Origin: Candidatus Aminicenantales bacterium
GTDB lineage: Bacteria > Acidobacteriota > Aminicenantia > Aminicenantales > Saccharicenantaceae
DNA: 20,000 nucleotides
Direction of reading: 5' to 3'
Assembly: GCA_049512315.1 (NCBI GenBank)
Contig: JBEKXF010000001.1
Span: 117,340 to 137,339, forward strand
In this document: piece by piece, positions 9,001 to 15,000 of the stretch
Position numbering within the stretch: position 1 is the stretch's first letter
Layout of the letters: every line of letters starts with the position of its first letter
Position numbers: made by a program

Positions 9001-12000
9001 CAAGATCGTGCCTTTGGGGGCGAAAATTTACATCTACTGAAAGACCATGCGAAAATCGGGCTTCCTGTTGCTGATGCTCCTCGCGGTATCCGGGGCGTTC
9101 GGCCAGGCCGTGGACAAGGAGAAGATCGTCCGCAGCCAGCAGGAGCTGACCTCCGAAAGCGAGCTGGCCAAGGAGCCCCGTTTCTATTTCGTCCTGGACG
9201 TCCGTCAGAAAAAACTTGAGCTCAGGGTCAAAGGGATGGTGCTGCGGGCCTGGAAGCTGCAGTCGATGAGATTCTGGGGAAAGCCGGCGTTCTCGAAAAC
9301 GGTCCAGCTAGTCAAAAAAAGCACGCTCAAGCCGCCCCAGCGGAACGTCATCAAGCCCGGCGAGGCGGCGGCCGCGGCCAAGGACCCAAGCAAGTTCGAG
9401 CTCGAGGCGCTCGAACTCAAGGACATGCCCAAAAGCTTCAGCCTGGATTTCGACAACGGGCTCCATATCTCGGTCAAAACCAGCGAAAAAGGCCTCAAAG
9501 CCCTCAGGGAGGAGGTCCGCTGGTATGGGCTATTGCCTGTGCGGAGCTTTTTCAGCTCTAGGAACGGCAAGCCGCTGTCTGAGCTCGAGCTGAGATTTAC
9601 GAACGAAAAGGATGCCCAGACAATTTACTGGATTTTCTATGAGGGAATTAAGGGGCTAGTGTATTAAATTTAGATATATTTTTTAATTTAAACTTGACAA
9701 ACATATGCTCAAGTTATATATTAATATCTAACTAAATAAGGAGGAGATTAATGACGAAGATAATCGGAATCGATTTGGGTACGACCAATTCAGTTGTCGC
9801 CATCCAGGAAGGCGATAAAACGACCGTCATTCCCAATGAGGAGGGCGGAAGGACGACCCCGTCGGTCGTGGCGTTCACTCCCAAGGGCGAGATCCTCGTA
9901 GGCCAGGTCGCTAGACGGCAGCGGGTCACCAATCCCGAAAACACGATCTATTCCATCAAGAGGTTCATGGGCCGCCGCTACGGAGAGGTCAGTCAGGAGA
10001 TCAAGCAGGTCCCGTTCAAAGTGGGCGAGGCCACGAACGGCGACGTCCGGGTGGAAGCGCTCGGCAAGAAATACGCCCCGCCCGAGATCTCCGCATTTAT
10101 TCTCCAGAAGCTGAAAAAGGCCGCGGAGGACTATCTCGGCGAGAAGGTCGAAAAAGCCGTCATCACCGTCCCCGCGTATTTCAACGACAGCCAGCGCAAA
10201 GCGACCAAGGACGCGGGCAAGATCGCCGGCCTCGAGGTCGTCCGGATCATCAACGAGCCGACCGCCGCGGCCCTGGCTTATGGCATGGACAAGCAGAAGG
10301 ACGAGGTCATCGCCGTCTATGACTTCGGCGGCGGGACCTTCGACATCTCCATCCTCGAGGTCGGGGAGGGCGTCGTCGAGGTCAAGGCCACGAACGGTGA
10401 CACGCACCTCGGGGGCGACGACCTCGACCAGAAGGTCCAGGACTGGATCGTTACCGAGTTCAAGAAGGAGTCGGGCATCGACCTGACCAAGGACAAGATG
10501 GCCCTCCAGCGGCTCAAAGAGGCCGCCGAGAAGGCCAAGGTCGAGCTCTCGACGACCATGGAAACAGAAATCAACCTGCCGTTCATCACGGCCGACGCCT
10601 CTGGCCCCAAGCACCTGCTGATGAAGATGACCCGGGCTAAGCTCGAGCAGCTTTGCGAGGACCTCATCCAAAGGTCGGTCCAGCCGGTCCGCCAGGCCCT
10701 GGCCGACGCCAACGTCAAGGCTCAGGACATTCAGGAAGTCGTCCTGGTCGGCGGCCAGACGAGGATGCCCCGGATCCAGCAGCTCGTTCGGGAGCTCTTC
10801 GGGCGCGAGCCCCACAAGGGCGTCAACCCGGACGAGGTCGTGGCGGTCGGAGCCGCCATCCAGGGCGCGGTGCTTTCGGGCGACGTCAAGGACGTGCTCC
10901 TTCTCGATGTCACGCCGCTGACCCTGGGCATCGAAACCCTGGGCGGCGTCTTCACCAGGATGATTCCCCGCAACACGACCATCCCGACCAAGAAGACCGA
11001 AACCTTCTCGACGGCCTCGGACAACCAGCTGAGCGTCGAGATCCACGTCCTGCAGGGCGAGCGCGAGCTGGCCTCGGACAACAGGACCCTCGGGAGGTTT
11101 CACCTTGACGGCATTCCACCGGCCGTGAGAGGGGTCCCCAAGATCGAGGTCACCTTCGATATCGACGCCAACGGCATCCTCCACGTATCCGCCAAGGACA
11201 CCGGCACAGGCAAGCAGCAGGCCATCACCATCACCGGTCACAGCGGGCTTGACGAGAAGGAGATCAATCGGATGGTCAAGGACGCCGAGAGCCACGCCGG
11301 CGAGGACAAGAAGCGCCGCGAAACCATCGATGCCAAGAACCACGCCGACCAGCTCATCTACAGCCTGGAGAACCTCTTGAAAGAGAACAAGGACAAGATC
11401 CGCGAGCACGAGGCCGAGGCGGTCCAGAACGAGATCGAGAACACGAAAAAGGCCATCGCCAGCGAGGACCTGGACCAGATCAACAAGGCCATCGAGTCCC
11501 TGTCCCGCGTCTCCCACAGGTTGACCGAAACCCTGTACCAGCAGGCCGGTCCGCAGGCTCCCGGCGGACAATCCGGCGGCGGGCAGGAAGGGACTTCGGG
11601 CGGCGACGGCCGGGGCCAATCCCAGCCGGGCGGAGCCGATGAAGAGGTCATCGACGCCGAGGTCGTGGACGACAATAAGAAGAATTAGGCCACGGGGCCT
11701 TTGACGCCGAACGGCGCGGCCTGAAAGGACGGAGCGTCCGAGGGACGACGGCCATGGCGAAAGACTATTATCAGATCCTGGGCGTGTCCAAAGGCGCCGT
11801 CCTGGCCGAAATCAAGAAGGCCTACCGCAAGCTGGCCCGAAAATATCATCCCGACCTCAACCCCGGGGACAAGGCCGCCGAGGCCAAGTTCAAGGAGATC
11901 CAGGAAGCGTACTCAGTCCTGAGCGACTCTAAAAAGCGGACCCAGTACGACCAATTCGGCTCGACGGGCGACTTCCCGCCCGGGGCTGGGCCGGGGGGAC

Positions 12001-15000
12001 CGGGGGCCTCTCCCGGATTCGAGGGCTTCGACTTCTCGGACTACGGTTCATCCTCTTTCAAGGATTTCTTCGAAAACCTCTTCGGGGGAGCCGGCCCTGG
12101 GATGTCCGGACGAGCCGAAGGCGGCCCCGAAAGGGGCGAAGACCTCAACTACACGATGAAGATCGGCTTCGAGGACGCGATCCGCGGCGTCCAGACGAGG
12201 ATCCGGTTGAACCGTCTCGCGGAGTGCGGCAGGTGCGGCGGCAGCGGCCAGGTCTCCGGAGGCGGGTCGAGGGCCTGCCCGGCCTGCGGCGGGACCGGCC
12301 GGGCGCATATGCAGCGGGGTTCCATGAAGTTCTCCGGCGCATGCCCGTCGTGTCGGGGGTCGGGGAAGGCTCCGGGGAACATGTGCCCCGACTGCCGGGG
12401 CGAGGGGGCCGTCCAGAGATCGGACCTCATCTCCGTCCGGATCCCAGCCGGGGTCGACACGGGATCCAGGGTCCGCATTCCCGGCCGGGGGAACGCCGGC
12501 CGGAATGGCGGCCCGCCGGGGGATCTCTACATCTCGATCGAGGTCGCCCCCCATGCCGTTTTCAGGCGGGAGGGGGCCAACATCTCCATCAAGGTCCCGA
12601 TCACGGTCCCTGAAGCCACGTTGGGGGCCAAGATCGAGGTCCCTACGCTGTGGGGGAGAACAACCATCCGTATCCCGCCCGGAACAAAGTCCGGCCAAAA
12701 GTTCCGGATCAGGGAACAGGGCGCTCCGGCGCCGGCCAAGAAGGCCCGGGGCGATGAATTCGTTGAGGTCGCCATCGTCCCGCCGTCGTTCGAGGACCAG
12801 AGGGTCCGGGAGCTCATGAAGGAGCTCGAGCGGATCTCCGGGCCGAACCCGCGCGAAAATACGGGGGGGGGCTGAGATGAAAAAAGGGCGGAAGGAAGCA
12901 AAAAGGGAACCACGGCAGTATTACCATATCAGCAGCGTCGCCAAAATGTACAACATCCATCCCCAGACGCTGAGACTCTACGAGCGGGAAGGCCTGATCA
13001 CTCCGTCCCGGAGCGAGGGCAACACCCGGCTCTACTCGACCGAAGACCTCAAGCGGCTCGAGCTCGTCCTCAACCTCATTCGTGATCTGGGCATCAACCT
13101 CGCCGGCGTCGAGGTCGTCCTCAACATGAGGGAGAAGATCGAGCAGATCGAGACCGAGGTCGGGGAATTCCTCGAGTATGTCCGGATGGAGTTCTTCCGG
13201 GGCAGGGAGGACGAATTCGAGGTCCGGCGGAATGCACTGGTTCATGTCCATCCTGCCGGGGTCGTCAAGGTGGAGGACCCGGAACGCTGACCATGGATTA
13301 CCGGGATTTCCTGGATTCGAGGAACCTGAAGCACTACCTGGAGGAAATCGCCAAGTTCCCGGCCCTCACCGAGGACGAGGAGAAGAAGCTCGGCGAGCGG
13401 GTCCGGCACGGAGACAAGGACGCCCTCCAGAGCCTGATCAAGGCCAACCTCAAGTTCGTCGTCTCCTACGTCAAGAAATATCGCGGCATGGGGCTGAGCA
13501 TGCTCGACCTCATCAACGAGGGGAACGTCGGCCTCATCGAGGCGGCCCGTCGGTTCGACCCGACCCGGAACGTGAGGTTCATCTCCTACGCCGTCTGGTG
13601 GATCCGTCAGGCGATCGTCCACGCCCTGTCTCAGTACTCCCACATCTACAATATCCCCCAGAAGCTCTCGGACCAGATCTCCCTGATGAAGAAGAAAACG
13701 GCCGCCCTCAAGACGGAGCTCGGCCGGGAGCCCAACCGGGAGGAGATCGCCGGGGCCTTGGGGATCTCCGAGGCGGACGTCGAGGACCTCGAGCTCCTCG
13801 AGGAGCGGAACGTGTCCCTGAGCGACAAGCGCTCCGACGAGGACTTCGAGATCGAGGACCGGATCAGCGACGGGGAGGCGGAGTCCGTCGAGTACCAGAT
13901 CATCAAGTCGTCGGCCCAGCACCAGATCCGGGAAATGCTCGCCGTGCTGGATGAAAAGGAAGAAACTGTGATAAAATTACGCTTCGGCCTGGACGACGAC
14001 CGGCCGATGACGCTCCAGGAGATCGGCGACAGGCTCCACCTGACCCGGGAGCGCATCCGCCAGATCGAGCAAAAAGCCATGCGGAAGCTGAGCCGGTCGA
14101 AAAAGCTTCAGCAGCTTAGAGGGTATCTGAATTGAGCGAACAGAGTGTCTGCGAACGATGCCTGGGGACCGGCTGGGTCCTGGAGGACGCCGGCGGCAGC
14201 AAGGTCGCCAAGCGATGCGTCTGCTACAGCGAACACCGGAAGCAGGCCCTCCTCGAGCAGGCCAACATCCCCCGGCGCTACCAGCACTGCAATTTCGATA
14301 ATTATAAGGTTCTGAACGATTCCCAAAAAGATGCCTATAAGATTTCCAGGAAATTCGTCGAGAACTACCCCGTCCAAGATGTCGGTCTCCTGTTCATCGG
14401 ACCCTGCGGGGTGGGAAAGACCCACCTGGCCGTCTCCATCATCCAGGAGCTCGTCCTGAAGAAGAACATCCCCTGCATCTTCTACGACTTCCGGGAGCTC
14501 ATCCGAGAGATCCAGAGCACGTTCACTCCGGATTCGACCCTCACGGAATCCGACATCCTGGGTCCGGTCTTCCAATCCGAAGTCCTGGTCCTCGACGAGC
14601 TCGGTGCCAAGCGGACATCGGCCTGGGTCGAAGAAACGATATTTTATATCATCAATTATCGATATAACTACAAAAGGGTCACGATTTTTACGACAAATTA
14701 TCAGGATGCTGAAGAACCTCCCAAGGAAGAGAATCGCCGCGATCCCTATTGGGAAAAGAAAATGGGCGGAGGAACCGGGTCAAGAGCTGAACTGGAGAAA
14801 GGGGAGAGCCTCGTCGACAGGATCGGTATTCGCCTGCGGTCCCGGATCTATGAGATGTGTAAAGTTGTCCCCATGGACGGCGAGGACTTCCGGATAAAAA
14901 TCAAGCAGGCCGGCTACCGGTTCTGAGGACTGGCCCCGAAAGCGGGATTGTTCTTCTCATGAACTTGCCATTTCCGGGCATTTTTGCTAAATTATCGAAA

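Follow-up and report, generated by a model that had tools for sequence, protein, structure and literature searches.

A chromosomal Aquifex-type DnaC-like AAA+ protein, probably a helicase loader, in Acidobacteriota with and without DciA

How might the helicase be loaded in an Aminicenantia genome that possesses one DnaB and no detectable DciA? The question is raised by the last gene of a dnaK operon in the window, the whole stretch of 20,000 nucleotides analyzed here. The first-pass annotation had described a dnaK-dnaJ-hspR-sigma70 operon ending in a DnaC/DnaI-type AAA+ gene, and all of these genes were found in place:

9693..9713, no strand assigned: HAIR-like inverted repeat CTTGA-N11-TCAAG, a sequence motif predicted as the probable HspR operator
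9751..11688, + strand: dnaK, the main full-length Hsp70 of the genome (NF001413, 1014 bits, cut-off 648; TIGR02350, 980 bits, cut-off 822; also above the PRK00290 cut-off)
11754..12875, + strand: dnaJ (TIGR02349, 392 bits, cut-off 377)
12877..13290, + strand: hspR-like MerR repressor (NF047375, 103.1 bits, slightly below the cut-off of 105)
13293..14135, + strand: alternative sigma70 factor, group-2-type, 280 aa, with regions 1.2, 2, 3 and 4 (Pfam)
14132..14926, + strand: Aquifex-type DnaC-like AAA+ protein, 264 aa, with a TTG start overlapping the sigma stop
15006..15081, + strand: tRNA-Asn(GTT), directly after the operon (ARAGORN)

The AAA+ gene is translationally coupled to the sigma gene, for which no NCBIfam equivalog exceeded its cut-off among the 25 matches listed. 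As had been claimed, the AAA+ gene is present in a single copy in this genome (G000). There was no sign of an integrated element around the tRNA-Asn gene, the flanking genes being of the housekeeping type. The claimed overlap of the inverted repeat and the dnaK promoter was confirmed: the -35 hexamer TTGACA (9694-9699) sits inside the left arm of the repeat, and a -10-like TATATT lies at 9717-9722, upstream of dnaK. The repeat differs from the 14-base HAIR consensus (PMC7464140) at three positions, and its location over the promoter of dnaK, in an operon containing hspR, points to a member of the HspR/HAIR regulon, as judged from sequence. HAIR-like repeats with at most one mismatch were detected 5' of dnaK in 33 of the 53 Aminicenantia loci and 11 of the 34 other acidobacterial loci (base shuffles gave an expectation of 0.22 in either case), an enrichment owed in part simply to the -35 box. 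The second dnaK of the genome encodes 526 aa and resides in an hrcA-grpE-like operon.

The sequence and predicted structure of the AAA+ protein supported the assignment to the DnaC/DnaI type rather than to IstB. A Cys4 zinc ribbon (C7, C10, C29 and C31) and a linker helix (residues 30-43) precede the AAA+ domain, which has a variable, low-confidence insert at about 195-222. Besides R234, the domain carries the intact DnaC/DnaI catalytic set, namely Walker A/B (K96, D155/E156), sensor I (N189), the Arg finger (R238) and sensor II (R254), the last two being assigned by motif outside the printed E. coli alignment. Rows from Aminicenantia, other Acidobacteriota and myxobacteria conserve the Walker A Lys, Walker B Asp, sensor I, Arg finger and sensor II, while the Arg-finger position is often Lys in the Aquificota rows; each of the ATPase motifs is required for the ATPase of E. 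coli DnaC (PMC8213410). The PF01695 AAA(CI) domain was recognized with 54.6 bits (cut-off 24.1). Among solved structures, the best relative was Aquifex DnaC (3ecc; E 9.8e-47), followed by weaker matches to three DnaI (6e-26 to 1e-21), E. coli DnaC (2e-24) and IstB (about 1e-13). Foldseek ranked 3ecc/3ec2 first and E. coli DnaC next, and the PHROG 50 profile ('DnaC-like helicase loader') was matched over the full length (E 6.5e-61). None of the NCBIfam DnaC/DnaI models was passed: the best was PRK08116 (143.8 bits against 189), and the E. coli DnaC equivalog NF005931 (86.6 against 357), the Firmicute DnaI model NF006505 (81.2 against 228) and the IstB model NF038214 (61.9 against 200) stayed below their cut-offs as well. 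The N-terminal 56 residues were predicted to fold with a pLDDT of 86, for which Foldseek found no match at E<=0.001 and VIA gave a best Z of 2.8, results that are neutral for the assignment. The four Cys had been described as invariant, which did not hold: all four were lost in the Aminicenantia family f3 (G008 and G069), in which DciA was undetected too.

We surveyed the AAA+ gene and DciA in 201 genomes of the phylum. The family was matched in 190 of them at E<=1e-5 and in 186 at E<=1e-20, the threshold for a strong match, consistent with the near-universal distribution proposed earlier. DciA was found together with the AAA+ gene in 122 of the 186 strong carriers and not in the remaining 64, so most carriers indeed keep both. 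The phylum tallies take in three unpublished genomes (G023, G048 and G145), without which the intact-type gene was counted in 183 of 198 genomes and both genes in 119. The class sample of 101 Aminicenantia comprised 94 full-strength matches, one split, one piece at a contig end, one weak match and four genomes with none. DciA was detected at E<0.01 in none of these 101 genomes (four short fragments scored 0.011-0.039), as had been stated, and in 137 of the 183 non-Aminicenantia. Thus, the two states anticipated for the phylum, both proteins or the AAA+ protein only, were both observed, but they do not divide it cleanly: DciA was also undetected in 46 non-Aminicenantia genomes, whole families among them, and Holophagaceae represent a third state (see below). 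No genome out of 201 was devoid of both a family member and DciA, a pattern close to trivial because the AAA+ gene is almost universal. We did not trust G025 and G054 as true DciA-only genomes, their completeness being 91% and 95%; G054 is also devoid of hspR and has a shortened DnaB match.

The coexistence of the AAA+ gene and DciA in Acidobacteriota runs counter to the published rule of mutual exclusion between dciA and dna[CI], and a whole phylum keeping both overturns it. In the table of Brezellec (2016), the rows of Leptospira and Conexibacter list one AAA(CI) plus one dciA each. No account of the acidobacterial case was found in the literature searched, in agreement with its supposed novelty. 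The absence of dciA, by which Brezellec (2016) recognizes a resident dna[CI], applies to this genome and to Aminicenantia, not to the family as a whole.

In this genome, DciA was found neither by PF05258 at E<=10 nor by a 30-sequence profile (best E 4). A 40-sequence profile gave a best E of 0.078 in a shadow frame; it recovered 40 of 40 left-out members at E<0.01, all of which had originally been profile-found. Synteny disclosed no hidden dciA at maf, gyrB or dnaN: maf forms a fusion with a methyltransferase and has no dciA neighbour, nothing dciA-like precedes gyrB, and recF did not exceed its cut-off. It is very unlikely, in our view, that the AAA+ protein does another job, such as control of the sigma factor or the chaperones, with the DciA of Aminicenantia too diverged to detect or DnaB loading unaided. 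The acidobacterial DciAs are indeed highly diverged (mean column identity 20%), lineages without any known loader exist (PMC11087808), and the coupling to the sigma gene would fit such a job. On the other hand, just 10 of 40 and 4 of 59 other-class loci have the sigma gene upstream, every close relative that has a name is a helicase loader, myxobacterial DciA is missing almost only alongside the AAA+ family (19 of 20), and maf, gyrB and dnaN of this genome adjoin no dciA candidate.

The fold and sequence of the AAA+ protein are of the DnaC type, its ATPase motifs are intact, and its gene is single-copy, vertically inherited and present both with and without DciA. On balance, the protein is probably a helicase loader, redundant with DciA and, in genomes lacking DciA, the sole known loader. 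The ATP-bound protein would form a short AAA+ spiral, with the N-terminal zinc ribbon and helix holding DnaB. The DnaB hexamer would then be opened or placed on ssDNA at oriC, possibly by docking to the DnaA filament in the way suggested for Aquifex, and ATP hydrolysis would release DnaB. DciA and DnaC share one binding site on DnaB, and either can replace the other in vitro (PMC9912922). Where both are present, the two would be at least partly redundant, so either would be free to decay. DciA may thus have been lost in Aminicenantia and several other lineages, leaving the AAA+ protein as the only known loader in this genome, while the ATP site would have decayed instead in Holophagaceae, which keep DciA. 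Being last in the main dnaK operon, the AAA+ gene would be expressed constantly, with a heat-shock boost. Some findings count against a loader. The helicase-binding helix of E. coli DnaC (before residue 53) is replaced in the family by the zinc ribbon, the alignment to E. coli DnaC beginning at residue 47; family f3 lost the four Cys despite having no detectable DciA; and the AAA+ gene adjoins neither dnaB, dnaA nor a DnaD-like gene. Likewise, the stable coexistence in 122 genomes of many classes has lasted long for two purely redundant proteins, suggesting distinct roles. A DciA may also have escaped the profiles through divergence. The DnaB determinant residue (Ser/Gly) was tried as a marker of the loader state and discarded, as no pattern was seen by eye in 132 DnaB sequences.

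Holophagaceae (f34) at first appeared to have lost the loader and kept DciA. We rejected this view, as a diverged copy was found by synteny behind the sigma gene (hhalign probability 99.9) and again in 10 of 10 further Holophagaceae genomes. Altogether, the degenerate copy is retained in 13 of 13 Holophagaceae and DciA is present in 13 of 13. The Walker A Lys is changed to Arg in 33 of the 36 distinct rows, and sensors I and II are gone; the zinc ribbon is kept in 33 of 36 and a C-terminal Arg is conserved in 35 of 36. This is a third state, a predicted degenerate ATPase copy plus DciA, and its retention in all 13 genomes implies a role of the family that needs no intact ATP site. The Holophagaceae copy is the natural counterpart of the laboratory mutant K112R of E. 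coli DnaC, which has no ATPase, yet loads DnaB in vitro like the wild type (PMC8213410). These observations, together with the long coexistence (122 of 201 genomes), favor a division of labour in which the AAA+ protein acts mainly as a DnaA-DnaB adaptor alongside DciA, docking on the DnaA filament terminus and positioning one helicase, with DciA opening the ring without ATP, and serves as a stand-alone loader only where DciA was lost. The DnaA filament's ATP site has been proposed as the docking place of the Box VII arginine of Aquifex DnaC (reviewed in PMC3401641). We nevertheless regard this scheme as unlikely, since the conserved Arg of Holophagaceae is not firmly assignable as the finger (aligned with R238 by eye, with about R230 by hhalign) and 29 DciA-only myxobacterial genomes (clades) do without the AAA+ family.

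All 64 named Aminicenantia-type loci have the AAA+ gene in the housekeeping dnaK operon, whereas this holds for only 19 of 40 and 19 of 59 loci in other acidobacterial classes (two locus sets), so the earlier claim of a phylum-wide place in this operon could not be upheld. The link to dnaK/dnaJ/hspR is broken in about half to two thirds of the other-class loci, where the gene lies beside other housekeeping-type neighbours, e.g., rpmE in Terriglobales and carB in Pyrinomonadaceae (gene names by eye). The dnaK/hspR link was seen in 0 of 22 Aquificota and 0 of 17 myxobacterial loci, and no neighbour was common to most of the myxobacterial loci. We conclude that the heat-shock operon link is ancestral yet often broken, and dispensable. 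DnaK and DnaJ free the lambda P loader from DnaB. This precedent, along with the HAIR-regulated operon of the 64 Aminicenantia-type loci and of the 19 loci in each of the two other-class sets, is what could be expected of an HspR-controlled protein that reloads DnaB at collapsed forks in heat shock while DciA serves oriC, DciA-less lineages using the AAA+ protein for both tasks or another, unknown loader. Such a role is quite unlikely in the light of the many loci outside Aminicenantia in which the link is missing, and the dnaK of the operon is the main copy of the genome, so the operon is probably expressed without stress as well.

A separate acidobacterial domestication had been proposed, which our survey did not bear out. 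The same family was found in Aquificota (25 of 25 genomes, with DciA in 0 of 25) and myxobacteria (31 of 61), and the tree fits one origin or several. The Aquificota proteins are collinear with the acidobacterial protein over the full length, zinc ribbon included, and contain its top solved-structure match, as expected of an Aquificota-type DnaC; Aquificota DnaC was already counted as a domestication by Brezellec (2016). Vertical inheritance was corroborated with DnaB as the only host marker: in trees of 49 rows, 11 of the 12 AAA+ splits with SH-aLRT>=95 recurred in the DnaB tree with no conflict, deep nodes being unsupported, and the pairwise distances had a rank correlation of 0.48 (0 of 999 permutations as high). 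A single acidobacterial clade was not rejected (p-AU 0.877), and the Aquificota sequences formed their own clade; deep nodes without support joined the acidobacterial, myxobacterial and Aquificota groups, the outgroups being just 2-5 phage sequences. The PF01695 domain, the congruent phylogeny and the conserved context outside mobile elements are those of a resident dna[CI] in the sense of Brezellec (2016). The 61 myxobacterial genomes comprised 12 with both genes, 19 with the loader only, 29 with DciA only and one with neither; 19 of the 20 genomes without DciA thus carry the loader. DciA absence amounts to six changes on the DnaB tree and the loader to two state changes only, with which an independent-pairs test had no power (p=1). 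Myxobacterial DciA scored a median of 38.7 bits against PF05258 with the loader (n=12) versus 65.2 without it (n=29). The weak profile matches in the 30 loader-less genomes resemble IstB, DnaA or RarA by eye.

A wider scenario, which we deem rather unlikely as a whole, is that Aquifex-type DnaC is an old cellular loader family of Acidobacteriota, Aquificota and myxobacteria rather than the product of several recent captures from phages, each of which evicted dciA. The AAA+ protein and DciA would normally form a two-part system, the former docking on DnaA and positioning the helicase, the latter opening the ring without ATP, with three outcomes: loss of dciA (Aminicenantia, Aquificota and several others), loss of the ATP site with the adaptor kept (Holophagaceae) and absence of the AAA+ protein (other myxobacteria). 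Apart from this scenario, nearly all Acidobacteriota carry a chromosomal gene for an Aquifex-type DnaC-like ATPase, and some lineages, this one included, seem to have dropped DciA. Genomes with both proteins, with the loader or DciA alone, and with DciA plus an ATPase-degenerate loader make two open questions testable in nature, i.e., why dciA is lost and whether both loaders compete for or share the LH-DH site of DnaB.

Comparison with known systems sets the family closest to Aquifex aeolicus DnaC (3ECC/3EC2; the 'Aquificae domestication' of Brezellec, 2016) in both sequence and structure. Aquificota DnaC shares the layout (CxxCxGxG...CxC ribbon, P-x-R-[YF], AAA+ domain and, past sensor I, a variable insert) and the single chromosomal copy, but Aquificota lack DciA and the dnaK/hspR link, whereas most acidobacterial carriers have DciA as well. 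The model structure for loaders, Aquifex DnaC, thus stands for a far larger family, and the crystal structure does not include the N-terminal zinc ribbon of that family. E. coli DnaC (6QEL/6QEM) has the AAA+ fold and catalytic motifs in common, but its N-terminal helicase-binding helix contrasts with the zinc ribbon, and its DnaB determinant Gly was not seen here. In Bacillus/Geobacillus DnaI (2W58, 4M4W), the zinc site is, as here, directly before the linker helix into the AAA+ domain, and the zinc is required for helicase binding (PMC2673437); however, it is Cys3His in a domain of about 106 residues, versus Cys4 in about 31 here, and no DnaD-like co-loader (DnaD/DnaB_2, PF07261) exceeded the cut-off in five genomes. 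IstB of IS21 belongs to the same Pfam family but scored far lower, and the gene studied here is single-copy, vertically inherited and has no transposase (istA) among its recurring neighbours. Some of the phage DnaC-like loaders of PHROG 50 also carry CxxC...CxC, but identity to the 20 best phage records is no more than 26-32%, and, in contrast to the AAA+ gene here, which stands without such a partner, three of the five phage loci read have an upstream gene annotated as a replication initiator.

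The dnaK-dnaJ-hspR-sigma70-loader operon recognized in the first-pass annotation was confirmed in the source genome of Candidatus Aminicenantales, with the following features (coordinates count within the window, which spans C1:117340-137339):

9693-9713: HAIR-like repeat, CTTGA-N11-TCAAG, with the spacing of the HAIR consensus
9751-11688, forward strand: dnaK, over the DnaK equivalog cut-offs
11754-12875, forward strand: dnaJ
12877-13290, forward strand: hspR
13293-14135, forward strand: sigma70 factor, 280 aa
14132-14926, forward strand: PF01695 ATPase (the loader), 264 aa, of which the TTG start overlaps the sigma stop

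A tRNA-Asn gene and mgsA lie downstream of the loader gene. The HAIR consensus is CTTGAGT-N7-ACTCAAG (PMC7464140), and among the regions upstream of dnaK, a HAIR-like repeat with at most one mismatch was found in 33 of 53 from Aminicenantia and in 11 of 34 from other genomes (0.22 expected from base shuffles for either set), both counts being inflated because the left arm doubles as a -35 box. The same genome bears a second dnaK, encoding 526 aa, in an hrcA-grpE-dnaK-dnaJ-like operon (C1:152198-156614; hrcA and grpE named by eye), in which the dnaK stop overlaps the dnaJ start. The gene cluster upstream of the main operon (6604-9667) comprises a lipoprotein-like coiled-coil gene, two YkuD L,D-transpeptidase genes (7303-8391 and 8393-9040) and a gene without a Pfam match (9047-9667).

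The loader is of the DnaC type, as read directly from profile and structure comparisons. A profile of 26 loader sequences (A1) matched Aquifex DnaC (3ecc) with an E-value of 9.8e-47, three DnaI structures with 6e-26 to 1e-21, E. coli DnaC with 2e-24, and both IstB and the AAA+ domain of a fourth DnaI with about 1e-13. When its AlphaFold model (pLDDT 87.6) was searched with Foldseek, Aquifex DnaC ranked first (3ecc, E 1.8e-14, 36% identity), followed by E. coli DnaC. The loader matched PHROG 50 (6.5e-61) but the best 20 phage records were just 26-32% identical to it, and it exceeded the cut-off of no NCBIfam model. Many relatives carry the JGI label 'DNA replication protein DnaC', and the name is therefore not new. 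The motifs are intact, with Walker A K96, Walker B D155/E156, sensor I N189, R234, R238 and R254; the ATPase of E. coli DnaC requires each canonical motif (PMC8213410). For the N-terminus, predicted to fold as a Cys4 beta-ribbon with a helix after it, no match was found among solved structures. In the alignment, the last Cys of the ribbon appears to fall at about the position of the last zinc ligand of DnaI, and the binding of DnaI to the helicase requires zinc (PMC2673437).

We consider it fairly probable that this protein puts the helicase DnaB on at the origin in the manner of Aquifex DnaC. The ATP-bound loader would form a AAA+ spiral, the N-terminal ribbon and helix would hold the helicase, docking on the DnaA filament may take place as in a review (PMC3401641), and the helicase would be let go upon ATP hydrolysis; in this scheme, we infer all that concerns DnaB. 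The N-terminus unlike that of E. coli DnaC counts against DnaB loading. So does the loss of zinc ligands in one Aminicenantia family (f3; G008 and G069), in which all four Cys, initially described as invariant, are gone and the gene is still within the operon (L251:1411-2200 in G069 and L252 in G008, both 1.9-Mb genomes). No signal was obtained for the DnaB determinant residue of the kind treated in PMC8216460, which also counts against loading. A role outside replication seems very unlikely. Domain additions were seen elsewhere: the loaders of one acidobacterial clade (L299, L304, L307, L312 and L319) bear an additional C-terminal Cys-rich domain (CxxC...CxC/CxxC), and Chloroflexota loaders (L205-L208) possess a tandem pair of AAA+ domains behind a similar zinc ribbon.

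Among the loci with enough upstream DNA, dnaK, dnaJ or hspR was found upstream of the loader gene in all 64 named Aminicenantia-type loci; for other classes the counts were 19 of 40 and 19 of 59. The counterparts in Aquificota (0 of 22 loci) and myxobacteria (0 of 17) were scanned over a shorter reach. The operon link, initially taken as phylum-wide, holds throughout the Aminicenantia type and in part of the loci of the other classes; it is ancestral in Acidobacteriota and dispensable. A loader serving under stress or in restart appears quite unlikely; the constant chaperone neighbors of the Aminicenantia-type loci speak for it, the frequent separation from them in other classes against it. 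The Aminicenantia operon was also met at 52-70% identity in many records titled 'uncultured Eubacteriales' or 'Clostridia' (L063, L066-L070 and others), which are probably mislabelled.

The loader proved near-universal, as proposed, in the phylum sample of 201 genomes (each at least 90% complete), with matches in 190 at E<=1e-5; the stricter limit of E<=1e-20 left 186. The older helicase loader DciA (PF05258) was detected in 135 genomes at E<=0.01, of which 129 exceeded the cut-off; a 40-sequence acidobacterial DciA profile, applied to the 66 misses and 10 controls, gave two clear gains (G018 and G046), and three weak matches were left out of the tally. Altogether, 122 genomes possess both genes, bearing out the proposed coexistence in most of the phylum, 64 the loader only, and 2, which are probably assembly gaps, DciA only; 13 are Holophagaceae and none has neither. 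Without three unpublished genomes, carriers number 183 of 198 and genomes with both genes 119. The loader-only genomes comprise 18 of the class of the source genome and 46 of other classes, so that DciA went undetected outside Aminicenantia too. No DciA was found in f24 (16 genomes, one match at E 0.08), in f36 (4 genomes), in the families f35, f51, f57 and f61 with 2 genomes apiece, or in some singletons, and the three genomes of f67 yielded a single weak match. When the states were mapped on a tree of DnaB from 71 genomes, picked so that every state was represented, the loader-only label required 11 changes, 9 of them forced by starred branches. Some singletons will be incomplete assemblies. 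A weak DciA match broken by TGA in a loader-bearing genome (L241, G196:C16:350909-351052) is possibly a decaying dciA. The loader gene of a DciA-bearing genome (L015:1483-2300, G192) has an in-frame TAG midway, which may be a sequencing error, a pseudogene or read-through.

DciA shares its binding module on DnaB with DnaC, and the two are swappable in vitro (PMC9912922), which would allow the loss of either. The long coexistence of the two counts against DnaB loading by the present protein. An adaptor acting together with DciA would sit with the 122 genomes bearing both; we regard it as unlikely.

Across 101 Aminicenantia, the loader was full-strength in 94, fragmentary in 2, weak in 1 and not found in 4, and DciA was found in none at E<0.01, in agreement with the first-pass annotation. 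Exhaustive six-frame searches of the source genome hit shadow frames only; the same searches recovered 40 of 40 left-out DciA controls at E<0.01, but these controls were themselves profile-found and a more diverged DciA could therefore escape. One DciA-bearing genome (G006, family f12) grouped among the Aminicenantia rows when DnaB was used for the tree, and its placement carries a warning on composition. The commonest dciA neighbor in other Acidobacteriota is maf (12 of 50 loci). In the source genome, Maf forms a single 650-aa fusion protein with a TrmA/RlmD-like RNA methyltransferase (C7:13003-14955, reverse strand; named by eye), dnaB lies at C9:86271-87632, dnaA-dnaN and gyrB-gyrA lie apart on contigs C9 and C18, and no recF exceeded the TIGR00611 cut-off genome-wide.

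Beyond the two states originally described, Holophagaceae represent a third. The 13 genomes of f34, a family of which the named relatives are mostly Holophagaceae, seemingly miss the loader, yet a diverged copy lies behind hspR and the sigma gene (profile-profile probability 99.9). All 13 possess this copy (3 by synteny, 10 by further searches) as well as DciA. The syntenic conserved copies are the following:

L515-L517 and L519-L554 (e.g., L517:2583-3482, reverse strand): Holophagaceae loader copy

Of 36 distinct sequences, 33 retain the zinc Cys and 33 have Arg in place of the Walker A Lys (1 Lys, 2 unread); the Asn of sensor I and the Arg of sensor II are lost, and a C-terminal Arg, of which the placement as an arginine finger is not firm, is kept in 35. 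The copies carry an insert of about 45-55 residues ahead of Walker A. The retention of an ATPase-degenerate copy counts against DnaB loading; the Walker A K-to-R version of E. coli DnaC has no ATPase and loads in vitro at a near wild-type level (PMC8213410). Holophagaceae DnaB forms a long branch in the DnaB tree, being fast-evolving.

Residency was likewise observed directly. The AAA+ tree of 49 acidobacterial rows contains 12 splits with strong support, of which 11 recurred in the DnaB tree and none was in conflict with it, and a single acidobacterial loader clade was not rejected (p-AU 0.877). In Aquificota (the phylum of the record named Aquifex, 25 genomes), every genome had one loader match and none had DciA; their DnaC shares the zinc ribbon. 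Scored with A1, a subgroup of them reaches 215-241 bits, inside the acidobacterial range. Among 61 myxobacterial genomes (the phylum of G201, of the record named Myxococcales), 31 had one strong loader match (E<1e-37) and 41 had DciA. The two genes occurred together in 12 genomes, the loader alone in 19, DciA alone in 29 and neither in 1; among the 30 without a strong loader match, a myxobacterial profile detected no diverged copy. All 4 strong AAA+ splits over 22 myxobacterial rows recurred in the DnaB tree; the distance correlation was weak (0.17, with 93 of 999 permutations as high). The loader changed twice and DciA absence six times on the myxobacterial tree. DciA scored lower beside the loader (median 38.7 vs 65.2 bits), and an independent-pairs test had no power. 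Most myxobacterial loaders (L257-L281 and L453-L457) have a doubled CxxCxGxG zinc region.

The Aquificota and myxobacterial clades were separate in the loader trees, of which the deep nodes lack resolution. The family may be old and of one origin, or related phage genes may have been captured several times, and the claim of a new domestication therefore falls short: the DnaC type and vertical residency stand, while a separate domestication is not shown, the family being shared with Aquificota and myxobacteria.

Brezellec 2016 (PMC5109545), in the portion available, counts seven domestications, with Acidobacteria and Deltaproteobacteria absent from the list, and states that dciA and dna[CI] were co-maintained in no genome; its table gives four Acidobacteria 1, 2, 1 and 8 PF01695 proteins, which are Pfam counts and not necessarily this family, and dciA in three. 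Tominaga 2024 (PMC11087808) attributed dnaC alongside dciA in Vibrionaceae to prophages. The accessible portion of a DciA survey preprint (10.1101/2022.01.24.477630) holds nothing on coexistence in Acidobacteriota, and our search outside subscription journals found no paper in which the loader family accompanies DciA, be it in Acidobacteriota, in Aminicenantes or in myxobacteria. The loader type is known and what is new is its undescribed phylum-wide coexistence with DciA, accompanied by one-sided losses on several occasions and by a naturally occurring form with a degenerate ATPase. In the rows seen of Supplementary Data 1 of PMC5109545, each of the five Leptospira entries, and Conexibacter as well, pairs a single PF01695 protein with a single dciA, which hints at further resident coexistence.
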